From an uncultured Bdellovibrionales bacterium (GTDB lineage Bacteria; Patescibacteriota; Minisyncoccia; Moranbacterales; UBA2206), in the NCBI GenBank assembly GCA_964636505.1, contig CAZWRY010000003.1, forward strand, positions 4,871 to 68,870: a stretch of DNA of 64,000 bases, written 5' to 3'. The first letter of the stretch is position 1, and every line of letters starts with the position of its first letter. The translations under genes were made by a program, and so were the position numbers. Of the stretch, positions 9,332 to 30,165 are shown piece by piece. Below the pieces are notes generated by a model, which saw nothing but the letters and a program-made list of their open reading frames with translations, ran no database searches and was not told the DNA's origin.

Positions 9332-10798
9332 TTATTTTATTCTTTGAAAAAGCGGCTCGACTTGTCTGGTTTCCAGGGCTTTTTTTATTTTTTCGGCAGT
9401 TTCGGGTAAAAATGGAGTTAACAAATCAGAAATAACACTTAAATCTTCTACCAGTTTTTGCATTACTTCTTGAAATCTTTCTGAGTCATTTTTAGCAAGT
9501 TCCCAAGGCTTATTATCTTCAATAAACTTATTGTCTTCTTTGATGATTCCCCAGATATAATCCAAACCAAAACTAAGCTCCATCTTTTCAATGAAGGGAT
9601 CCAGCTTCCCCGAAGCTAAGCTTCGGGGTGATTCACCACGAAGCTTAGCTTCGGGGGACAATTTAATAACTCGTGAAACCAGGTTTCCAAGTCCATTGGC
9701 CAAGTCTGCGTTATATTTTTCCGTCATCCATTCCCAATTGATATCCACATCATCACCAAAACTATTGAGACTCAGCAGAATGTAGCGCGTGCCATCAATG
9801 CCAAACTTTTCTACCATTTCGTAAGGAGAAATGACATTTCCCAAAGACTTGGACATTTTTTGCCCATTGCTAGTCAGAAAACTATTAATGAAAATTTGCT
9901 TTGAGGCTGGCAAATTAACTGCCATAAGCATGGCTTGCCACATCGCCGACTGCGGACGTAAATTATCTTTGCCAGCTACTTGAATGCCTGGCCACCAATC
10001 AAAAAATGTTCCAGGAGCACCAACAGGTAATTGAGCAGAATCGTCAGGTTTACCCGCCGAAGCTTCAGCAGAGGCGGGCCAGCCAATAGCAGAAACATAA
10101 TTAATCAAGGCATCAAACCAAACATACATTACCTGACTTTCATCGCCCGGCACAGGTACGCCCCAAGGCATTTTTTCTTTCACGCGCGAAATAGAAAAAT
10201 CTTCCAGTCCCATATTTACAAAACTTTTAATCTCATTAAACCGGTGAGCTGGAACTATGAACTCAGGATTTTTTTCATACAAACCAAGCAGTTTTTGCTG
10301 AAAAGCAGAAAATTTGAAAAAATAATTTTCTTCTTCTCTGATTTCTATTTTTCTATTGGGGTGCAATGGACAACAACCGTCAACCAGTTCTGAATCGGTT
10401 TTTTCCAATTCGCAACCGACACAATATTTTGTTTTGTAATTCTTTTTGTAGATATAACCATTAGCTTCCGCCTGTCGCCAAAATTCTTGCGCAGCTTTCA
10501 TATGATGTTCATCGGTCGTGCGAATAAAATTATCAAAGCTCAAGTTGAGAACATTTTTTAGCTCCTTGAATTTTTCTACTTGTTGATCACAATAGGCCTG
10601 CGTATCCAAACCAAGCTCCTGAGCTCGTTCATATATTTTGGCACCATGCTCATCTGTACCAACATTAAAAAAAACTTCATGGCCAGCCATTCTCTGAAAT
10701 CTCGCCCAAGCATCCGCTCGAATAACTTCCCACGCATAACCAATATGCGGTTCGGCATTCACATAGGGCAAGGTAGTTGTAATATATTTTTTAGCCAT
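9332..10798 (-). CDS. metG: Methionyl-tRNA synthetase (carries an in-frame palindromic insertion)
   Basis: HIGH-region PHIGYAWE, KMSKSLGN motif, zinc knuckle CVGCE...CCPLH. Confidence 0.9.
   Translation of the reverse strand: MAKKYITTTLPYVNAEPHIGYAWEVIRADAWARFQRMAGHEVFFNVGTDEHGAKIYERAQELGLDTQAYCDQQVEKFKELKNVLNLSFDNFIRTTDEHHMKAAQEFWRQAEANGYIYKKNYKTKYCVGCELEKTDSELVDGCCPLHPNRKIEIREEENYFFKFSAFQQKLLGLYEKNPEFIVPAHRFNEIKSFVNMGLEDFSISRVKEKMPWGVPVPGDESQVMYVWFDALINYVSAIGWPASAEASAGKPDDSAQLPVGAPGTFFDWWPGIQVAGKDNLRPQSAMWQAMLMAVNLPASKQIFINSFLTSNGQKMSKSLGNVISPYEMVEKFGIDGTRYILLSLNSFGDDVDINWEWMTEKYNADLANGLGNLVSRVIKLSPEAKLRGESPRSLASGKLDPFIEKMELSFGLDYIWGIIKEDNKFIEDNKPWELAKNDSERFQEVMQKLVEDLSVISDLLTPFLPETAEKIKKALETRQVEPLFQRIK
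9608..9657. repeat. GC-rich nested palindrome inserted in-frame within metG
   Basis: ccccgaagctaagcttcgggg + tgattcacc + acgaagcttagcttcggggg. The full ~50 nt is a near-perfect inverted repeat and encodes SPEAKLRG(E/D)SPRSLASG on both strands. Confidence 0.5.
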
Positions 10799-16672: not shown

Positions 16673-16697
16673 AAGTTTTTATTTTAAAAATGATTTG

Positions 16698-16768
16698 TGG
16701 ACTTAGCGAGAATCGAACTCGCGTCCCCGCAATGCGAATGCGGTGTGCTACCACTATACCATAAGCCC
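16698..16768 (-). tRNA. tRNA-Ala(CGC)
   Basis: Cloverleaf: acceptor GGGCUUA/UAAGUCC with the G3:U70 Ala identity pair; anticodon stem CCGCA/UGCGG; loop UUCGCAU; T-arm GCGAG-UUCGAUU-CUCGC. No encoded CCA. Confidence 0.85.
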
Positions 16769-16796
16769 TAAATATTTAATTATAACAGAAATATTG

Positions 16797-16837
16797 TGCC
16801 TGCTAGCAGGCAGGTTATACCACTAGACCATAGGCCC
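16797..16837 (-). pseudogene. tRNA-Ala-like 5'-half remnant fused to a palindromic hairpin
   Basis: GGGCCUAUGGUCUAGUGGUAUAACCUGCC matches the acceptor-5' and D-arm of the adjacent tRNA in about 24 of 29 positions. It is followed by UGCCUGC-UA-GCAGGCA and a U-rich tail, with no T-arm or 3' acceptor strand. Confidence 0.45.
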
Positions 16838-16862
16838 AAGTATTCTAAGCTATGATGTAGGT

Positions 16863-16942
16863 GAAGTATAATTTTAGAGGCTTATTGTAAAAAATAAGAA
16901 TAGTCTTTCCATATCAATTCGGCTCTAAAATCATATTTCATC
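16863..16942 (-). repeat. Conserved leader hairpin element, copy A (second copy at 25304..25388)
   Basis: Shares the core AUUUUAGAGCCGAAUUGAUA ... CAAUAAGCCUCUAAAAUUAU with copy B; the arms pair, including G-U wobbles, and the loop differs. Preceded by duplicated ATGATTTT 8-mers and an AT-rich putative promoter. Confidence 0.4.
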
Positions 16943-16963
16943 AAAATCATATAATAATAAATT

Positions 16964-18196
16964 TTATAAATATTTTCTATTCTGAAGTTCCTTGGGCAAG
17001 TATTCTTGTTTAGAGCTGTCTTCAAGCGGAGTGTATTTGTAGCCCTTGCTATAACCCAAATCTTTCATCAGTTTTGTTGGCGCATTGCGAATATGCAGCG
17101 GCACCGGCAAATTACCAAATTCCTCTACATCTTTTTTGGCTTTATTATAGGCTAAATAGGCCGAAACACTTTTTTTGCTTTTGGCCAAATAAATGACGCA
17201 TTGCGCCAAATGAACGCTACATTCAGGATAACCCAGTTTATGGCAAGCGTCAAAAACCGCGTTAGCCAAAAGAAGGGCTGTATTATTGGCTAAACCGATA
17301 TCTTCAGAAGCAAAACGCACCAAGCGTCTGGCAATATATAAAGGGTCTTCTCCGCCTTCAATCATTCGCGCTAGCCAATACAAAGCTGCATCCGCATCAC
17401 CGCCGCGCATTGATTTGTGCAGCGCCGAAATAATATTGTAATGCTCTTCGCCGGTCTTGTCATAAAGAAGATGCGATTTTTGTAGAATTTTTTTGATCAG
17501 TTCTTCAGTTATTTTAGTACCTTGTCCCAAGCTCGCCTCCAAAGTATTCAGTGCCATCCGTGCATCGCCATTGGAAAAATTCGCAATCATTTCAAGAGCT
17601 TCCATCGGCACTTTTTTGTTTATTTTTTGGATAGCTCTTTGCAAGATTTTTTCAATATCTTTTTTCTCAAGTCTTTGCAAAACAAAAACACGCGCCCGCG
17701 AAAGCAAAGCGGAAATAACTTCAAAGCCAGGATTCTCAGTTGTAGCTCCGATCAAAATAAGTGTGCCGTTTTCTACATAGGGCAAGAGCGCATCTTGCTG
17801 GGCTTTGTTCCAACGATGAATTTCATCTATAAACAAAACAGTCTTGCGGCCGATCTTTTTATTTTCCTTGGCGCTTTCAATTATTTTAAGTAAATCTTTT
17901 TTGCCACTTACTACAGCGCTGATATTTAAAAAATCAGCTTTAGTTTCTTTAGCAATAATAAAAGCCAAGGTGGTTTTCCCGGATCCGGGCGGACCCCAAA
18001 AAATGAGCGATGGCACATTGTCATTTTTGATTGCCTGGCGCAAAAAAGATTTTTTACCCAAAAGCTCAACTTGCCCAAAAACTTCCTCAAGTTTTTGAGG
18101 CCGGACAGCATCCGCCAGTGGCACATTCTCACTTGTTTTTAGACTTAAATTCGCTTTCATCAAGCCTATTTTACCCCAAAACAAGGCTTTTGGCAA
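16964..18196 (-). CDS. rarA: Replication-associated recombination protein A (AAA+ ATPase)
   Basis: Walker A GPPGSGKTT, Walker B LFIDEIHR, and the MgsA C-terminal domain. Confidence 0.85.
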   Translation of the reverse strand: MPKALFWGKIGLMKANLSLKTSENVPLADAVRPQKLEEVFGQVELLGKKSFLRQAIKNDNVPSLIFWGPPGSGKTTLAFIIAKETKADFLNISAVVSGKKDLLKIIESAKENKKIGRKTVLFIDEIHRWNKAQQDALLPYVENGTLILIGATTENPGFEVISALLSRARVFVLQRLEKKDIEKILQRAIQKINKKVPMEALEMIANFSNGDARMALNTLEASLGQGTKITEELIKKILQKSHLLYDKTGEEHYNIISALHKSMRGGDADAALYWLARMIEGGEDPLYIARRLVRFASEDIGLANNTALLLANAVFDACHKLGYPECSVHLAQCVIYLAKSKKSVSAYLAYNKAKKDVEEFGNLPVPLHIRNAPTKLMKDLGYSKGYKYTPLEDSSKQEYLPKELQNRKYL

Positions 18197-18256
18197 AAAT
18201 AAAAAGTGTTCAACTATTTTTTAATTTATTTAATTAAAATCTTCAGAAGAAAAAAA

Positions 18257-19396
18257 TTATTTTCTCAATTTTTTTATCAAATCTACATAAAACTTGAGAT
18301 TATGCATAGCCGCGAGACGCATAGCCAAAGGTTCTTTTTTAACAAACAAATACCGCAAATAACTCTTAGAATAGTTTTTGCAAAGTTCGCAATCGCAATT
18401 CCTATCTATTAAAGAAAAATCTTTCTTATATTTTTCATTATTGATATTAATTGTTTCATAAAACTTTCCTTTTAGGTTTTTAAAACTACCTTTTCGTATA
18501 AAAAGACGTCCGTGTCTGCCTTCTCTGGTTGGGATTACGCAATCAAACATATCCCAGCCCATGTTAGCGCAGCGAACGATATCTTCCAGCGTGCCAATAC
18601 CCAAAGCAAAACGCAAAGAATTTTCTGGAATCAAATCAACTGTAAATTTCAAAACTTCTTCCATAAAATTTCCTTCTGCATCCAAATGCCGGGCGCCGAA
18701 ACCATACCCATCCCAACCTATGGCTGGTCCGCCCTTGGCGGAAAATCCAATTTTTATTAGTCCTTCCACGCATTTTTTTCTAAGGTCCGTGTACCCGCCA
18801 CCTTGAATTACACAAAAAATCAAAGGCCTGTTTTCTTTTTTTATTTTTCTAGCCTTAAGTTGTTTCTTATACTCAATCATGCACCTTTCCGCCCAAGCCA
18901 ATGTCCGATCTACAGCTTTCGCTATTTTTTCCTTACTGCTTGAGTTAGGCGGCGGATCATCAAAGCAAACCATCATATCCACACCCAAATCAAATTGGAT
19001 TTGAATTGATTTCTCCGGTGTGATTATGTGTTTAGATCCATCCAGCGGCGAATGAAAAACAACACCATCATCGGTTACTTTTCCCATCTTGGGATTTTTG
19101 TGAATCAGAGAAAAAACTTGATATCCCCCGCTATCGGAAAGCAAGGCTTTATTCCAATTCATAAAGCCATGGATGCCCTTAGCTTTTTTGATAAATTCCA
19201 CCCCGGGTTGTAGAAAAAGATGATAGGTATTAACCACCATCGGTTCAATACCAATTTTCTGCAAATCATTTTTACTCAGCGATCTCACAAAACCATAAGT
19301 CGCATCCGGCATAAAAAACGGAGAATTAATTTCTCCGCTTTTTGTTTTTAAGACGCCGATTCTTTTTTTGCCGCTAGTTTTCTTTATATAAAACAT
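18257..19396 (-). CDS. tgt: Queuine tRNA-ribosyltransferase
   Basis: Conserved TGT N-terminus and zinc site CDCELC. Confidence 0.9.
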   Translation of the reverse strand: MFYIKKTSGKKRIGVLKTKSGEINSPFFMPDATYGFVRSLSKNDLQKIGIEPMVVNTYHLFLQPGVEFIKKAKGIHGFMNWNKALLSDSGGYQVFSLIHKNPKMGKVTDDGVVFHSPLDGSKHIITPEKSIQIQFDLGVDMMVCFDDPPPNSSSKEKIAKAVDRTLAWAERCMIEYKKQLKARKIKKENRPLIFCVIQGGGYTDLRKKCVEGLIKIGFSAKGGPAIGWDGYGFGARHLDAEGNFMEEVLKFTVDLIPENSLRFALGIGTLEDIVRCANMGWDMFDCVIPTREGRHGRLFIRKGSFKNLKGKFYETININNEKYKKDFSLIDRNCDCELCKNYSKSYLRYLFVKKEPLAMRLAAMHNLKFYVDLIKKLRK

Positions 19397-19402
19397 GATT
19401 TT

Positions 19403-21322
19403 TTATTCGGGTGCCTGAATTTTACCGGTTGGTATTGTACTATCCTCTGTCAGATAGGTGGTTTTTTCCCTGATGGTTGTTTTTAATTCTTGTTCGGTAA
19501 ATAAGTCCTTGGCTGAAAATGTGGCCGGACCCACCAGTTGCGCATCATTACTCGCTTGTCCCGGTAAAGGAGTCAATTTCACTTGAAAAATAAATTCCTC
19601 CGCTTGACTGGTTATTCCAGCGCCAGCATTGATATTGCCGATATTCCAGACCAAAGTATTACTTCTTTCGTTGTAAATATAATTTGCATTTTCCGGACTC
19701 ACATTGCCCGTAAGTGTAACATTTGTTGGCAAAACAGCAATAACCTTAGCTTCCTCAACATCGTTGAAGATATTCATAGCTCTCCAGTATATAGTATAGG
19801 TTGTATCTTGTCCAACGACAGGCGGAATTGGTCCGGAATTTGGAATAGCTTTATTGGTGTAAAATCCAAAAGATTCTAAAACTAATTTTGAGTTGAGCTT
19901 CATAGTTATCTCATTGCCGGATATGATCTGGTTTTCCCGAAGCGGAGAATTAATGTCGGCACTGTCTATTCTGGCCGAGCTGGAAAATATGAAATTTTTA
20001 TCTAGAACATTCTCAGTAGGAATTATGTCTTTAACTTTTATGGTAAACTTTATTGAACCTCTTTCGCCAGGATTCAATCTGGCTAATTTTTCATTATCAG
20101 CCGCTTTCCAGGTAATAATCTTCCTGTTAGCGTCAAAATATCCGCCTTTGCCCAAGCTTAAAGTTGAATAATCCAAAATAGGACTGTCAATACTTTCCGA
20201 AACAATCAAATCCTTGAGGGTCTGGTCACTGCTATTTCCAAATTGTATTTCATAATTCAAGATATCTCCGGCATTTACAAAGAGCTTATCCGAATCATTT
20301 ATACGCTGAACGATTGCCAAATCCGGGTAAGCGACGCGAGTTTCGGCTTTTTGTTCAATATAGCTTAGAAATTTTTCATCCCTGACAATCCCGGCATGAA
20401 CTGTAAATCTTTTTATTTCATCTTTTCTTCCTTCCATCTTCCCTTTGACTTTTATTATGCCTCCTTCGCCGGCCGGAATGGTACCGATGAACCAAATATT
20501 ATTTTGGTCTGAAACCATCGGAATGGAACTGGCGAAAATGAAACCGTCAGCATAATCTGCTTTTATTTGCAAAGCTTCCAGTTCTTCATTTCCAGAATTT
20601 CTGTAGTTTATAACATATTCAACCGCGTCTCCATTGGCAATTACTTGTTGAGCTAGCACATTTAAAGTGATGGGTGCGGTAGCAATGCTAACTCCGTATT
20701 GAGATTTAGTAACTAATATGCTACTTAAAACAGACGGAGTATAAGACAACTCCATTTTTAAATAAGTCAAATTTTCACTTGCAGAATACGTTCTAGCATT
20801 AAAGATAATCTTTTTTTCTTCTCCTCCTTTAATTTCTCCCAGATTATACGTTCCAGTTATCGGAGTTTCTTCAACAAAATTGGGATTTTCTTCAGGACGA
20901 AAATTCTCCGGATAACTAAGACGCAAAACGGCATTACGCAAATCAGCCCTGTTGTCATTTTTGTAGGTTATTTCATAGGCTACCAGTTTGCCACTTCTGA
21001 CTTCCTCCAAGCCCTGGGCTACCAAGGAAACTCTTTCAAAGTTAAACGATGCTTGCCTAATTTTATAAAAAACCACTCCAATAATAACTAAAAGAAGAAT
21101 GACACCTCCGATAAGCGCAGCTATTTTTATTTTTATTTTTCTCTTTTCATACATTTCATTCGGGTCAATTAGGCTGCTTTCATTTGCGACAGAAAACTTT
21201 TGGACAGCCTCTTCACTTCCCGCCAGGGATGATCTGGCATCAAATTCACTTTCAGCATGATGGTAAAGGTCTTTTTCTTCCTCTTTTTTGTAAAGTTTAT
21301 TTTTTATATCAGCTAGAGACAT
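19403..21322 (-). CDS. Large single-pass membrane-anchored surface protein, function unknown
   Basis: About 60 aa cytoplasmic tail, a TM (IAALIGGVILLLVIIGVVF), then an extracellular region of about 560 aa rich in beta-strand-like sequence. 7 nt from the tgt start. Confidence 0.5.
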   Translation of the reverse strand: MSLADIKNKLYKKEEEKDLYHHAESEFDARSSLAGSEEAVQKFSVANESSLIDPNEMYEKRKIKIKIAALIGGVILLLVIIGVVFYKIRQASFNFERVSLVAQGLEEVRSGKLVAYEITYKNDNRADLRNAVLRLSYPENFRPEENPNFVEETPITGTYNLGEIKGGEEKKIIFNARTYSASENLTYLKMELSYTPSVLSSILVTKSQYGVSIATAPITLNVLAQQVIANGDAVEYVINYRNSGNEELEALQIKADYADGFIFASSIPMVSDQNNIWFIGTIPAGEGGIIKVKGKMEGRKDEIKRFTVHAGIVRDEKFLSYIEQKAETRVAYPDLAIVQRINDSDKLFVNAGDILNYEIQFGNSSDQTLKDLIVSESIDSPILDYSTLSLGKGGYFDANRKIITWKAADNEKLARLNPGERGSIKFTIKVKDIIPTENVLDKNFIFSSSARIDSADINSPLRENQIISGNEITMKLNSKLVLESFGFYTNKAIPNSGPIPPVVGQDTTYTIYWRAMNIFNDVEEAKVIAVLPTNVTLTGNVSPENANYIYNERSNTLVWNIGNINAGAGITSQAEEFIFQVKLTPLPGQASNDAQLVGPATFSAKDLFTEQELKTTIREKTTYLTEDSTIPTGKIQAPE

Positions 21323-21392
21323 TTTTTTTATTTTTATGTTTTATCCACTCGCCAAAAGTAATTCATTATTCATAAATTACGGCATCTATATT

Positions 21393-22148
21393 TTACCACA
21401 AAAATCCCTTGCCCGCCATACCACTCTCGCCAAAAACCCACCTCAAAAAATCGGAAAATGTTATCTTTATTTGATTAATGTCTTTATCTGTAGCATTAAT
21501 TTTCACTAGATTACTTATTTTATTTTTCAAAAAGACTCTAATAAATTTTATTGATTCATCATTTATTTTAAGTTTCTGGTTTTCTTTGCCGGCGCAAATA
21601 GAGCAAAGAACTCCTCCGTGCCGGGCGCTGAAATAATTTTTCTGAGAAACAAGTTTTTTTCCGCAACCAACACATCTGTCCGCTTCAACCCGATAACCCA
21701 TTTCGCCCAAAAACTTAAATAGAAATCCCAGAGTTAAAATTCTTTTTTTGTTTTCCATATTTTCTTTAGTTGACAAATGCTCCATTGTTTCTAAATAATC
21801 CTTGAGTAGTTTGGCAATATTTTCATCCGCACTCTGTTCGGAAATTATTTTATCCATAATTTTGAAAACATAAAAAACTTGCTTCATGGAATCCATATCT
21901 GATTTTATTTTGGGAAAATTATTTGTTGCAATTGAGCCAGTTATTTTTCCGAGACCCCTGGTTTTGGCCAGAAAAATTTCCGCTTGGGTTATTGGCTCAA
22001 GAAAACCTGCTAGTTTGGCCTTAGCCTTTCTGACGCTTTTGGCTAAAGCTCTGATTTTCCCCATTTCCAAAGTATAGATCGTATATATCCGATCCGTTTC
22101 ACCCACATCCCGCTTATTTAAAATTACACCTGTAAATTTATACTCCAT
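21393..22148 (-). CDS. recO: DNA repair protein RecO
   Basis: RecO N-terminal OB-fold sequence and C-terminal zinc ribbon CVGCG...CSIC. Confidence 0.8.
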   Translation of the reverse strand: MEYKFTGVILNKRDVGETDRIYTIYTLEMGKIRALAKSVRKAKAKLAGFLEPITQAEIFLAKTRGLGKITGSIATNNFPKIKSDMDSMKQVFYVFKIMDKIISEQSADENIAKLLKDYLETMEHLSTKENMENKKRILTLGFLFKFLGEMGYRVEADRCVGCGKKLVSQKNYFSARHGGVLCSICAGKENQKLKINDESIKFIRVFLKNKISNLVKINATDKDINQIKITFSDFLRWVFGESGMAGKGFLW

Positions 22149-22149
22149 G

Positions 22150-25089
22150 CTATCTTTTTATTTGCAAGATAATTTTCTCGCCGTTAATATTAAATTCTTT
22201 TTCCAAATCAATATTTTCAACTTTTTTATTTTCCAGCTTGTTGGCCAGAGTTTCTTTTTGAATTATCTCGCCAAATTTATCCATGACTTTTTCCATGCCT
22301 TGGAAAAAAACTTCTATTCTGTTTTCCACTTCATATCCGGCCTCTCTTCGCATTTCCTGAATAAAGCGGACAATTTCCCTCGCCTGGCCTTCTAGTTTCA
22401 AATTTTCGGTAATTTCAGTGTTAAGCTCGATATTTTCGGTAATACTTTTATCAAAAGAAGCATCCTTAACATTAACTTCTTCCTGAATTATATCTAAAAA
22501 TTCTTTTCTCAAATCATAGGCCTTGAATCTCAAATCATTAAGCGGTTGGCGTACTTTTATTCCAGCCTTAGCCCTAAGCTGCAAAGCTTCTGTAATAATC
22601 ATCCTGACTTTTTCCATTTCTTCATTTAATTTCTCATCTACCAATTTTTCATCAGCCACTGGAAAATCGGACAAATGCACAGATTCTTTGCCGATCAGAT
22701 TTTTGTAAATTTCCTCCGCAATAAATGGACAAAATGGTGCCATCAACTTGGAAAGTTCCACCAAAACATAGTGCAAAGTCTCATAGGCTGCTTTTTTATC
22801 AGAGTCATCCTCTGATTTCCAAAATCTTTTTCTGGATCTTCTAATGTACCAATTGGAAAGATTATCGATGAATTTCGGAAATAGCCGAACTGTCCTATTA
22901 AGCTCATACTTTTCCATGCTTTCGTTAACATTTTTAATTAGCACTTGTAATTCAGAAACTATCCATTTATCCAGCAAGTTTGTGGTTTTTAGTCCTTGTT
23001 TTACAGAAGGCTCAAATTTATCAATATTCGCATAGAGCACAAAAAATGAATATGAATTCCAAAGCATACGCATCATACCGCGTACGACATCCGCCACTTC
23101 TGATTCTTTGAAATTAATGGTTTCAGCAGCCACCACTGGCGAGCTCAAGAGATAAAAACGCAAGGCATCCGCTCCATATTTATCCATAACCAAAGCCGGA
23201 TCCGGATAATTATTCAGTCGCTTAGCCATTTTCTTTCCATCCTCTGCCAGAACTATTCCGTTAACAATCACGTTTTTAAAAGCATTAGACTTTTTGATAG
23301 TTGTCCCAATTGCGTGTAAATAATAAAACCAGCAACGCGTTTGATCCACACCCTCGGCAATAAACTCAGCTGGGAAACTTCCATTAAAAATTTCTTCATT
23401 TTCAAAAGGAAAATGCACTTCCGCATATGGCATCGAGCCACTATCAAACCAGGTATCCAGCACATCCGGGATTCTTTTCATTTCTCCGCCACATTTCTCA
23501 CACTTGAAAGTAATTTTGTCCACAACGTGCTTATGGATATCAGTAATTTTTTCTCCAGATATGTCTTCCAATTCTTTAACCGATCCAAAAACTTTCATTT
23601 CTCCGCATTCGCACTTCCAAATTGGCATAACTGAAGCCCAATAGCGCTGGCGAGAAATTGACCAATCGCGTGCACCTTCAAGCCAATTTCCAAAACGTCC
23701 TTCTTTTAAATGTCCTGGCACCCAATTTATTTTTTTGGCCTGCTCCAACATTTCCTCTTTTATTTTTGTAATATTCACAAACCAAGATGAAGTTGCGTAA
23801 TTGATGAGCGGCGTATCACATCTCCAACAATGCGGATAGCTGTGTTCATATTTTTCTTTAGCAAAAAGCAGATTATTTTTGGCCAAATATTTTATCACTT
23901 CCACATCGGTCTTTTGATGATCTTCTTCGGGTTTTACACTCATTCCAGCAAAATCCTTAGCTTCTCCCTTAATGCTTCCATCCATACTAACATGTTGAAC
24001 GAATGGCAATTTGTATTGCTGCCCCATTTTGGCATCATCTTCCCCAAAGGCCGGCGCAATGTGCACCACTCCGGTTCCCTCTTCGGTTGTCACAAAATCT
24101 CCAGCATAAATCTGCCAACCATTTTCTTCATTCTCTAATCCTTTGCTGACATAATAATCAAAAAGAGGTTTATATTTTTTGCCAATTAACTTTTTACCTT
24201 GAAATCTTTCGATAATCCCTGGAGGTGTTGGCGGAGTTTCATTTTCCTTGAGTTCTTTGAATAGTGGAAATAATTCATCTTTTCTAATTTCATATATCCT
24301 TTCAGATAATATAAAAAACTTAGGATTGCCATTTTTATCGTTATATTTTATTTTTACATACCAAGTATTTTCCCCAACTGCTAGCGCCACATTTCCAATG
24401 AGTGTCCAGGGTGTTGTCGTCCAGGCCAAAATAAAAGCTTCGGGTTCATCTTCTAATTCAAATTTAACTGTCGCGGATAAATCTTTGATATCTTTGTACC
24501 CTTCAGCGACTTCTGACTGAGAAAGAGTTGTTTCACAACGTGTGCAAATATGCATAATCCGATGCCCTTCATATATCAGACCTTTATCGTAAAGCTCTTT
24601 GAAAACCCACCAGACAGATTCCATAAATGGCAAATCCATAGTTCTGTAGCTATTTTTCATGTCTGCCCAGCGACCCAAACGATTGATAACCGTTTCCCAT
24701 TCATCAACATATTTCAAAACTTTGGTGCGACAAAATTCATTAAACTTTTCCACGCCCATTTTCTCAATTTCGTTTTTATGTTTAATGCCCAGCTCTTTTT
24801 CGGCAATGTTTTCAATTGGCAACCCATGACAGTCCCAGCCCCATTTTCTGGGAACATTGAAACCGCGCATAGTCCAATAGCGAGGCACTGCATCCTTCAT
24901 GACGCTGCCGACAATATGACCATAGTGTGGAGTGCCGGTTGCAAAAGGCGGTCCATCATAAAAACTGTATTGCTTGGCATCTTTGCGAACTTCCAACGAT
25001 TTTTCGAAAATATTATTTTCATTCCAAAATTTCAAAATCTCTTCTTCCATTTTTGGAAAACTTTGCTTGGCATCAACTTTTTTGAACAT
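22150..25089 (-). CDS. ileS: Isoleucyl-tRNA synthetase. The ORF-track start at 25131 is probably over-extended; the likelier start is the Met at 25089.
   Basis: HIGH motif PHYGHIVG and a KMSKS-like KMAKR. The first 14 codons (MDNVFYFLIIFYKF) translate the U-tract of the upstream T-box terminator; MFKKVDAKQSFPKMEEEILKFW matches a typical IleRS N-terminus. Confidence 0.9.
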   Translation of the reverse strand: MFKKVDAKQSFPKMEEEILKFWNENNIFEKSLEVRKDAKQYSFYDGPPFATGTPHYGHIVGSVMKDAVPRYWTMRGFNVPRKWGWDCHGLPIENIAEKELGIKHKNEIEKMGVEKFNEFCRTKVLKYVDEWETVINRLGRWADMKNSYRTMDLPFMESVWWVFKELYDKGLIYEGHRIMHICTRCETTLSQSEVAEGYKDIKDLSATVKFELEDEPEAFILAWTTTPWTLIGNVALAVGENTWYVKIKYNDKNGNPKFFILSERIYEIRKDELFPLFKELKENETPPTPPGIIERFQGKKLIGKKYKPLFDYYVSKGLENEENGWQIYAGDFVTTEEGTGVVHIAPAFGEDDAKMGQQYKLPFVQHVSMDGSIKGEAKDFAGMSVKPEEDHQKTDVEVIKYLAKNNLLFAKEKYEHSYPHCWRCDTPLINYATSSWFVNITKIKEEMLEQAKKINWVPGHLKEGRFGNWLEGARDWSISRQRYWASVMPIWKCECGEMKVFGSVKELEDISGEKITDIHKHVVDKITFKCEKCGGEMKRIPDVLDTWFDSGSMPYAEVHFPFENEEIFNGSFPAEFIAEGVDQTRCWFYYLHAIGTTIKKSNAFKNVIVNGIVLAEDGKKMAKRLNNYPDPALVMDKYGADALRFYLLSSPVVAAETINFKESEVADVVRGMMRMLWNSYSFFVLYANIDKFEPSVKQGLKTTNLLDKWIVSELQVLIKNVNESMEKYELNRTVRLFPKFIDNLSNWYIRRSRKRFWKSEDDSDKKAAYETLHYVLVELSKLMAPFCPFIAEEIYKNLIGKESVHLSDFPVADEKLVDEKLNEEMEKVRMIITEALQLRAKAGIKVRQPLNDLRFKAYDLRKEFLDIIQEEVNVKDASFDKSITENIELNTEITENLKLEGQAREIVRFIQEMRREAGYEVENRIEVFFQGMEKVMDKFGEIIQKETLANKLENKKVENIDLEKEFNINGEKIILQIKR

Positions 25090-25400
25090 AAATTTATAAA
25101 AAATTATTAAAAAATAAAAAACGTTATCCATAAGGACGACGTTTGTCGTGGTACCACCTTAATTTCCCAGCTCTTTGCCTGCAAAGGGTTGGGCTCAATT
25201 TGGCTATTACGGGCTTGCCCGGCAAGTTTTACTCGTCAAAAGACTTTCTTCTTGCGGCTCCGAGGTGATAGCCTCATCATCGCCTTTAACTACATTTGAG
25301 TTCTTCTGAAGATAATTTTAGAGGCTTATTGCAAACAGCATAATTAAAGTTTTTTTCTTATCAATTCGGCTCTAAAATTATCTTCAGAAAATTATCTTTG
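25090..25400 (-). promoter_or_regulatory. T-box riboswitch leader upstream of ileS
   Basis: Minus-strand AAUUAAGGUGGUACCACG matches the T-box consensus AAUUAGGGUGGUACCGCG. A hairpin plus UUUUUUUAUUUUUU terminator follows. Upstream hairpin GAGG-CUAUCA-CCUC exposes AUC (Ile) followed by A. Confidence 0.6.
25304..25388 (-). repeat. Conserved leader hairpin element, copy B (perfect 20 bp inverted arms), at the 5' end of the ileS leader
   Basis: ttctgaagataattttagag ... ctctaaaattatcttcagaa flank a 45 nt loop; shares its core with copy A. Confidence 0.45.
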
Positions 25401-25405
25401 TTTCC

Positions 25406-25434
25406 AATATAGCCCAACCTGACCAAAAAATCAA
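25406..25434 (-). promoter_or_regulatory. Sigma70-like promoter for the ileS leader
   Basis: Minus-strand TTGATT, 17 nt spacer, TATATT, about 7 nt upstream of the hairpin element. Confidence 0.45.
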
Positions 25435-29728: not shown

Positions 29729-30119
29729 GGGGATGCTTGGCATCGACAGGTTGCACATTTATAATAAGCAAGTCGAGAATGATAATAACTCGTTAAAATC
29801 TTATCAAAATGATAAGTGCAAACTTATTTTCAAAAGCAAAGTCAGTATTAGCACAAGCTTTTACTTCAAATTTTGCTCTGTCTTTGGCTTAATTGCCGAA
29901 GACCATCGGTCTGTCGAATTCTAATAGACAGGTCTCCGGTGTTATACATTGGAATAGCTGATTAGATTTTTTCTTGAGTTTGATCAGTAAAACCAATCAA
30001 GAATAGACTGAAAAATTTTTGTTTGTTCATTACCTTCAGTCGAATCAACAAACAAACTAAACTTGTAGAATATTATAGGTTAACAACACTGGACATGGGT
30101 TCAACTCCCATCATCTCCA
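29729..30119 (+). ncRNA. ssrA: tmRNA (SsrA)
   Basis: 5' GGGGAUGCUUGGCAUCGACAGG and 3' GGACAUGGGUUCAACUCCCAUCAUCUCCA form a tRNA-like domain with a G3:U70 acceptor pair. Directly follows smpB. Candidate tag frame 29818-29892. Confidence 0.8.
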
Positions 30120-30165
30120 CTATGTAAAATAATAATTTAACACCAAATATATTAGAAGAGGACCA

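Follow-up and report, generated by a model that had tools for sequence, protein, structure and literature searches.

A dispersed, structure-constrained hairpin in Candidatus Moranbacteria, possibly a low-copy palindromic repeat

The 64,000-nt stretch of contig CAZWRY010000003.1 (assembly GCA_964636505.1) that was analyzed here, called the window and numbered from its first letter, contains two copies of a long hairpin on its minus strand, copy B upstream of ileS and copy A between rarA and a tRNA-Ala gene. We found that they belong to a family of six copies at five loci, four of the copies at three loci beyond the window, in related Candidatus Moranbacteria (Patescibacteria, or candidate phyla radiation [CPR]). 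Homologs of its ileS place the window itself in Candidatus Moranbacteria/Parcubacteria, within the CPR. The hairpin is a real, previously uncatalogued element. It has dispersed to unrelated intergenic sites on the promoter side of genes, its presence is polymorphic among relatives, its stem carries compensating changes, and its core is invariant. We consider it roughly an even bet (probability of about 0.5) that the hairpin is a low-copy palindromic repeat of ~100 bp, similar to REPINs (doublets of repetitive extragenic palindromic [REP] sequences that form hairpins) or Correia elements, that it is restricted to a narrow clade of Moranbacteria and co-transcribed, and that it is kept by selection for hairpin formation.

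Results

Two copies of the hairpin in the window

25304 to 25389, minus strand: hairpin copy B, with a perfect lower stem of 20 bp, an internal loop of C.C and G.A/A.A mismatches, an upper stem of 4 bp and an AT-rich loop of ~30 nt; 5' arm at 25359 to 25377, 3' arm at 25312 to 25331.
16851 to 16951, minus strand: hairpin copy A, with the same core as copy B and a longer, less perfect outer stem; 5' arm at 16912 to 16930, 3' arm at 16868 to 16887.

An earlier note, made from the letters of the window, had described two minus-strand copies with shared arms, and both were indeed present. The 19-nt 5' arm TTTTAGAGCCGAATTGATA occurs exactly twice in the window, at the positions listed, with a chance expectation of 0.09, and the 20-nt 3' arm CAATAAGCCTCTAAAATTAT occurs exactly twice in that orientation, with a chance expectation of 0.03. 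The inverted repeat of copy B (25304 to 25331 and 25362 to 25389) has 28-nt arms that are 89% complementary and includes the perfect 20-bp stem that the note had seen; that of copy A (16851 to 16887 and 16915 to 16951) has 37-nt arms that are 78% complementary. These are the two longest local inverted repeats of the window, and RNA folding compared with shuffled sequences gave z values of −4.7 for copy A and −6.6 for copy B. A terminator scan found no U-tract terminator at either hairpin, in agreement with the note. The duplicated 8-mer that it had pointed out is there in both copies (ATGATTTT twice and GATAATTTT twice), but since one of the copies found elsewhere (L002, see below) lacks one, the duplication is not a feature of the family.

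Chance similarity or an assembly artifact has next to no probability. Low-complexity inverted repeats are common in an AT-rich genome such as this one, but each arm was found twice against the expectations given above, identical sequences were recovered in independent assemblies from at least four other samples, and more copies exist in other species; this explanation is already refuted. The hairpin is stable within the window's species: in same-species contigs from four other samples, the copies were identical to those of the window, with copy A whole in three, copy B in two and both in one.

Further copies in related Moranbacteria

Exact two-arm patterns were used to scan 185,579 species representatives, metagenome contigs and viral contigs. 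Among the species representatives, two copies (L001 and L002) were found in one metagenome-assembled genome (MAG), CAZJOI01. The metagenome scan gave two matches, of which L003 was new and L004 was identical to L002, and a sixth copy (L037) came from a look-up of neighbor loci. Four more copies thus exist, all in related Moranbacteria, at the following sites.

L001 and L037: 16 nt before the ATG of tsaE, within the spacer that separates a DHH gene from the divergent tsaE-PPIase.
L002: between divergent pcrA/uvrD and the gene of a 195-aa S-adenosylmethionine (SAM) methyltransferase, 45 nt from the pcrA start and ~210 nt from the methyltransferase start.
L003: upstream of a cytidylate-kinase-like gene, preceded by a canonical terminator and a TGTATAAT box.

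A five-copy covariance model (R1) found nothing more in the window, in 60 other loci or in a further ~30 kb from the same species. No real match to the hairpin came from phage, plasmid or viral collections, and single-arm scans of viral contigs gave only chance 17-mer matches, which the covariance model did not confirm. In Rfam 15, the hairpins match no family, only generic models of microRNA precursors below threshold (14 to 23 bits, compared with gathering scores of at least 95), and we found nothing relevant in the literature on CPR repeats or RNA motifs. When relatives were sampled via a conserved 66-aa cold-shock protein, only the window's own species was recovered.

Other long palindromes were seen in these contigs. 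An unrelated AT-rich leader hairpin with a stem of ~25 bp lies at positions 2270 to 2359 of the L002 contig, between the L002 copy and the methyltransferase start, and an Rfam search found no riboswitch downstream of the L002 copy. Another unrelated long AT-rich hairpin lies in front of folD in L007 (20044 to 20144), preceded by a terminator and a TATAAT box. Such long leader palindromes may be common in the Moranbacteria clade.

The stem covaries around an invariant core

The six copies were aligned and 27 stem pairs were scored, with 500 shuffles and a slid partner as controls. Over the six copies, 96.9% of the stem cells were paired and nine pairs had changes on both sides; the observed values were reached in none of the 500 shuffles, and the slid control gave ~43%. 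The stems therefore covary, which the earlier note had named as a check. Identity across copies was 87 to 98% in the core arms, 42 to 84% in the loop and 25 to 90% in the outer stem. The C.C mismatch, one C-G pair and the tandem G.A/A.A mismatches, which make up the internal loop, are invariant in all six copies. Core lengths range from 51 to 55 nt, with arm spacing that varies between copies, and stem lengths range from 26 to 35 bp; a compensated 1-bp indel separates copy A from copy B. Over the 10 outermost bp of the stem, A, L001, L037 and L003 are 65 to 90% identical to one another and 25 to 45% identical to B and L002.

A closer look is possible for the orthologous copies L001 and L037, since their spacers have diverged by ~10% and their tsaE genes are 82.6% identical at the nucleotide level (78% for the TsaE proteins). 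Six positions of the stem have changed, by one double change from C-G to U-A, one compensated +U/+A indel and two changes from U.G to U-A, and in each case pairing was kept or improved. The loop has four changes. The core has no substitution at all, where ~4 would be expected at the 10% divergence of the spacer. Taken together with the covariation among the six copies, these pairing-preserving changes indicate that the hairpin is under constraint, beyond what a decaying repeat would show.

The earlier note had taken G-U wobbles in the arms as a sign of structure at the RNA level, but this argument fails. The sense strands of the six copies have four G.U and four A.C mismatches, and an A.C mismatch on the sense strand is a G.U pair on the antisense strand. 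The energies of the sense and antisense RNAs of the six copies were −30.4 and −30.3, −24.0 and −31.4, −37.8 and −34.1, −34.4 and −40.2, −27.2 and −33.2, and −33.6 and −33.1 kcal/mol; the antisense fold is as good or better in five of the six, and both strands fold as single-stranded DNA too. The invariant, asymmetric internal loop and the constant orientation to the downstream gene argue for a directional function. Every copy is in sense orientation relative to the downstream gene, but this observation is confounded because the genes of the window's genome are strongly strand-biased.

Several known kinds of hairpin were considered and rejected. A K-turn does not fit, as read from the sequence: the bulged strand has 2 nt instead of 3, and the opposite strand has 2 extra nucleotides. 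An attC site of an integron would have R boxes (GTTRRRY/RYYYAAC), and there are none. A terminator of the upstream gene is contradicted by the missing U-tract and by three loci that have no co-directional upstream gene or already have a terminator. The loops of A, B and L003 contain short open reading frames that might encode a leader peptide, but a start codon is missing from L001, and L002 is in a different frame.

Filled and empty sites among relatives

The hairpin is present at some orthologous sites and absent from others. In three relatives, the ileS leader has no hairpin: MAG CAZJOI01 (L005 and L006; IleRS 80% identical), L009 (81%) and L007/L008 (78%). All three retain the TTGATT −35 hexamer over the stop codon of the amidase gene, which is followed within ~10 to 20 nt by a conserved T-box Stem I. 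Some ~130 nt of additional sequence, copy B included, are therefore peculiar to the window's lineage. In L010 (IleRS 83% identical), a fourth relative, even the T-box is missing. At the tsaE locus, the hairpin is found in L001 and L037 and is missing from L039, with the same synteny (TsaE 71% identical), and from L035, with a different upstream region (84%). Copies at non-orthologous loci together with filled and empty orthologous sites are expected of transposable elements of the miniature inverted-repeat type (MITEs), and both were observed here.

Beyond the stem, the flanks of non-orthologous copies are not homologous, with the exception of a short 8-mer tail, TGGCAGTA, common to L001, L037 and L003; the TGTATAAT box is common to L001 and L003. 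A promoter carried within the repeated unit was rejected, since apart from this 8-mer and this box the homology of non-orthologous flanks is not significant. Copies A and B are the least similar pair of the family (67%). The outer stem of copy A (GYGAAAYAT/ATRTTTCRC) groups with those of L001, L037 and L003 (65 to 75% identical), so that a single subtype is found at loci that differ from genome to genome. The idea that insertion into palindromic targets already present gave rise to the copy-specific outer stems was rejected because these four outer stems are homologous. From the unrelated flanks, the presence and absence at orthologous sites and the occurrence of one subtype at other loci, we conclude that a discrete unit has been copied between sites.

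The genes downstream of the five loci are ileS, tRNA-Ala/glyQS, tsaE, the cytidylate-kinase-like gene and the SAM methyltransferase gene. Three of the five are translation-related, which is no significant excess in a CPR genome. The note's first choice, a conserved leader motif of translation-machinery operons, is not supported: three relatives have the same promoter and T-box without the hairpin, and the copies of the MAG are at tsaE and between pcrA and the methyltransferase gene. Its alternative, an inverted-repeat element landing near promoters, fits better.

Copy B lies between a promoter-like site and the ileS T-box

25406 to 25434, minus strand: promoter-like site, TTGATT-N17-TATATT, lying upstream of copy B and kept in relatives without the hairpin; its −35 hexamer and the amidase stop codon overlap.
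25377 to 25406, minus strand: second promoter-like site, TGGAAA-N18-GATAAT, whose −10 is the conserved ATAAT of the 5' arm of the hairpin.
25129 to 25289, minus strand: T-box leader of ileS (63.8 bits, E = 1.7e-13; the gathering score, 93, is not reached); Stem I is ultrashort, its loop carries the AUC specifier, and a terminator and a U-run come after it.
22150 to 25089, minus strand: coding sequence of ileS; the start is probably at 25089, matching a 979-aa database protein.

The ATG of the ileS open reading frame at 25131 falls within the terminator of the T-box, and the true start is therefore probably at 25089. The T-box match leaves out the hairpin altogether; its Stem I begins 15 nt downstream of the hairpin, at 25289. 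Although copy B and the T-box share a leader, the hairpin is distinct from Stem I, as the earlier note had held: Stem I has its own GA/K-turn base and its AUC specifier in a short loop 3' of the hairpin, and relatives have the T-box without the hairpin. Copy B thus does sit downstream of TTGATT-N17-TATATT, between a promoter conserved in relatives and the ileS T-box.

Several Moranbacteria have an IleRS of 1130 to 1215 aa with an inserted histidine-phosphatase domain (PF00300), and the L010 gene (10001 to 13609) has no T-box leader.

Copy A lies between the rarA stop codon and the tRNA-Ala gene

16964 to 18196, minus strand: rarA/mgsA, last gene of the tightly packed run ileS, recO, gene of a 639-aa protein, tgt, rarA; copy A lies 3' of its stop codon.
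16797 to 16837, minus strand: remnant of the 5' half of a tRNA (41 nt), ending in a 6-bp stem, a CUAG loop and a T-rich tail and therefore terminator-like; not called as a tRNA.
16779 to 16787, minus strand: extended −10 box TGTTATAAT, 10 nt upstream of tRNA-Ala, read from the sequence.
16697 to 16768, minus strand: tRNA-Ala (CGC), found by tRNA and Rfam searches.

Copy A had been placed by the note at the 5' end of the tRNA-Ala/glyQS unit, which is not clearly its position. The stem begins 12 nt past the rarA stop codon, and between copy A and tRNA-Ala lie the terminator-like stem of the remnant and then TGTTATAAT, which is likely the unit's own promoter. Copy A is therefore at least as much a part of the ileS-rarA trailer as of the tRNA-Ala/glyQS leader. 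The remnant resembles the start of the adjacent tRNA-Ala, with the anticodon arm swapped for the 6-bp stem with the CUAG loop.

Promoter-like sequences of the hairpin

A −35-like hexamer (TTGGCA, TTTGCA, CTGGCA, TTATCA or TGGAAA) is present 16 to 18 nt upstream of the ATAAT of the 5' arm in five of the six copies on the sense strand and in none on the antisense strand, with a background rate of 0.16. Since L001, L037 and L003 share TGGCAGTA there, the observations are not fully independent, and because this was a post hoc look at AT-rich DNA, we treat the pattern as suggestive. An antisense promoter from the mirrored ATAAT was rejected because no copy has the −35-like hexamer there. An internal TTGATA-N16/17-TATATT is strong in L001 and L002, can be read in L037 too, is weak in B and L003 and has been lost in A. 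The hairpin regions have 6 to 8 promoter-like sites, compared with 1.4 to 2.2 in shuffled sequences.

Other features of the window and related contigs

A 215-aa Y1 transposase (PF01797, with a weak REP_Tyr_transpos match of 27.5 bits, compared with a cutoff of 80) is encoded in MAG CAZJOI01 (contig 18; L005, 13608 to 14480, and the same in L006), just after tgt, where synteny with the window breaks. It is flanked by four copies of a 21-nt palindrome, CTTGGACATT[C/G]AATGTCCAAG, of which one lies within the coding sequence of the transposase itself. This palindrome is unrelated to the hairpin and does not occur in the window. From its sequence, the locus looks like a system of REP sequences and a REP-associated tyrosine transposase (RAYT) in a CPR genome.

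The window also contains a GC-rich nested palindrome at 9608 to 9656 (CCCCGAAGCTAAGCTTCGGGGTGA/TCACCACGAAGCTTAGCTTCGGGG, 96% complementary), which lies in frame within a metG-like coding sequence (9332 to 10798, minus strand) and encodes ...KLSPEAKLRGESPRSLASGKLD...; it is single in the window, was found in none of 43 compared loci and recalls the in-gene palindromic elements of Rickettsia. A transfer-messenger RNA gene with the tag peptide ANLFSKAKSVLAQAFTSNFALSLA is located at 29729 to 30122 on the plus strand. Beyond the high-coordinate end of the window, contigs of the same species differ: L015 (1 to 4125), compared with L014 and L017, shows a block of phage-integrase, SOS-response (umuD/umuC-like) and SduA_C genes versus a block of ArsP, DsbD and thioredoxin genes.

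Discussion

A unit of ~100 bp has been copied whole into unrelated intergenic DNA on the promoter side of genes and, once in place, can persist, with compensating changes keeping the 26- to 35-bp stem. If it is a palindromic repeat of the kind proposed, the element would be co-transcribed with the neighboring gene, so as to add a long stem-loop to the start of the ileS T-box leader in the case of copy B and to the end of the ileS-to-rarA run in the case of copy A. By analogy with Correia and REP sequences, the stem could then act as a double-stranded RNA target for processing by RNase III or as a determinant of stability, and the 5' arm might supply the −10-like ATAAT of a promoter whose −35 lies in the flanking DNA.

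Several observations weigh against this explanation. The flanks of the six copies have no consistent target-site duplication and no common flanking tetranucleotide; the only near-repeat is GTAGCA/ATAGCA at the L001/L037 locus, and nothing consistent was seen at B, L002, L003 or A. Of the two signs of a mobile element that the earlier note had named, copies scattered over unrelated loci were thus found, but consistent duplications were not. No transposase is linked to any of the copies, and the window has no Y1 transposase. The copy number is very low, with two in ~95 kb of the window's species (the window plus ~30 kb of non-overlapping flanks) and two exact-core copies in MAG CAZJOI01. Classical MITEs have conserved termini, whereas here the outermost stem varies from subtype to subtype. 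Furthermore, L001 and L037 have kept an unchanged core at their orthologous site; this suggests that selection acts there, for which a host function would be at least as good an explanation, and transcription of the hairpin, its cleavage by RNase III and its promoter activity are all things that we infer.

A host function could be that of a dedicated cis-regulatory leader RNA, in which a trans-acting protein reads the internal loop and the flanking helix and co-regulates translation-related genes, layered in the case of ileS on the T-box. The ~43-nt core with its internal loop, invariant in six copies next to a variable loop and outer stem, speaks for such an RNA, as do the strong compensatory covariation of the stem and the sense orientation of all copies to the downstream gene; the tsaE copy has been kept at an orthologous site in two species with only pairing-preserving changes of its stem, and three of the five loci precede ileS, tRNA-Ala/glyQS or tsaE. 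We nevertheless regard this as unlikely. Three relatives have the T-box but no hairpin in their ileS leaders, two have none upstream of tsaE, and the mismatches and energies carry no strand signal. Moreover, copy A comes right after a stop codon, with a terminator-like stem and a separate promoter of the tRNA downstream of it, and the L002 copy is much nearer to the divergent pcrA start than to the methyltransferase start. A cytidylate-kinase-like gene and a generic SAM methyltransferase gene are the other genes downstream, and for a CPR genome the share of genes related to translation is not significant.

The balance of strands would be expected if the hairpin acted in DNA only, either as a purely selfish single-stranded hairpin recognized by a recombinase (HUH/Y1, RAYT-like, or another) or as a palindromic promoter or operator, with the stem kept by templated correction of one arm from the other. 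The two strands fold equally well whether as RNA or as DNA, the spectrum of mismatches is symmetric, a REP/RAYT-like system is present in the related MAG, and the orientation of the copies is confounded with gene strand bias. The several sets of promoter-like hexamers, including the internal TTGATA-N16/17-TATATT, and their excess over shuffled sequences point in the same direction. However, arm-to-arm correction should remove the C.C, G.A and A.A mismatches, which are invariant, and compensation in the outer stem would not be explained by a double-stranded operator. Arm spacing varies between copies, the arms are not palindromes themselves, unlike REP units, no cognate transposase adjoins any copy, and the internal −10 is lost or weak in three copies. 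We therefore hold an action in DNA only to be improbable. Rather doubtful, finally, is the idea of an undescribed protein-binding leader RNA whose 30-bp helix presents the C.C/G.A-A.A loop to an RNase III-type enzyme or a dedicated regulator. Such a module could serve as a portable second control of ileS (on top of the T-box), tsaE and other growth-related genes, with genes being recruited by copying of the module together with its −10 box.

To our knowledge, almost nothing is known about noncoding elements, small mobile repeats and post-transcriptional control in Patescibacteria/CPR, whose genomes are tiny and not yet open to genetics. The family described here provides a clear case, within this group, of a portable hairpin under structural constraint and would make a useful marker of recent genome change between close MAGs, and copy B, which separates a T-box riboswitch from its promoter, amounts to a natural experiment on added leader structure. 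Whether the internal loop is a binding site is the question worth pursuing: if it binds a protein, the hairpin would represent a new class of regulatory RNA; otherwise, it adds one more lineage to those with REP, REPIN or Correia-type repeats.

Comparison with known systems

The RNase III processing hairpins and 5' stabilizers, such as the R sites of phage T7 and those of the rnc and pnp leaders, have a continuous helix of more than 22 bp with a conserved internal loop near the 5' end of the mRNA, as does the hairpin described here. Unlike it, they are locus-specific and vertically conserved and are not copied between unrelated loci.

The classical bacterial MITEs and palindromic repeats, ERIC, RUP, BOX and NEMIS (reviewed in PMC2229807 and PMC10969869), are likewise small, noncoding, dispersed and hairpin-forming and lie in transcript leaders and trailers. 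The hairpin differs from them in that no target-site duplication was found and that its conserved part seems to be internal, not terminal, and no parent insertion sequence with the same ends turned up, including in the single-arm scans of viral contigs. Correia elements (Correia repeat enclosed elements) of Neisseria create promoters with flanking DNA at their ends, and their transcribed hairpins are RNase III substrates (PMC2649163). They share with the Moranbacteria element a size of ~100 to 150 bp, long inverted repeats around a less conserved core, a location next to genes, and presence or absence between related genomes; co-transcription with neighboring genes may be a further parallel, and the −10-like ATAAT of the 5' arm with a flanking −35 is reminiscent of the promoters created by Correia ends (PMC2649163), although only hexamers were scored here. 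The sequences are unrelated, and the Neisseria-type 26-bp inverted repeats, TA target-site duplication and integration host factor site were not found; in addition, the outermost stem is subtype-specific, the copy number is very low, and the host belongs to the CPR.

REPINs, which occur in Pseudomonas and enterobacteria, are mobilized by RAYT transposases and consist of two invariant inverted arms with a less conserved spacer, forming a long hairpin in single-stranded DNA or mRNA; compensating changes are frequent, and the copies are intergenic and persist for long times (PMC3116915). Conserved inverted arms, a variable spacer, a long hairpin and compensating changes were all found in the Moranbacteria element as well. 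The differences concern the arms, which are not REP palindromes, contain no GTAG, at their 5' ends or elsewhere, and when taken alone fold at 0 and −0.4 kcal/mol, no better than shuffled sequences; the number of copies, which is ~2 per genome instead of tens to hundreds; the orientation, which is sense to the downstream gene in all copies found; and perhaps the transposase, since no RAYT flanked by the hairpin repeat was seen in the window or next to any of the copies and the Y1 transposase of the related MAG is flanked by the other, 21-nt palindrome. Because its arms are not REP units and its copy number is too low, we classify the element as one that would work like the REPIN class and not as a member of it.

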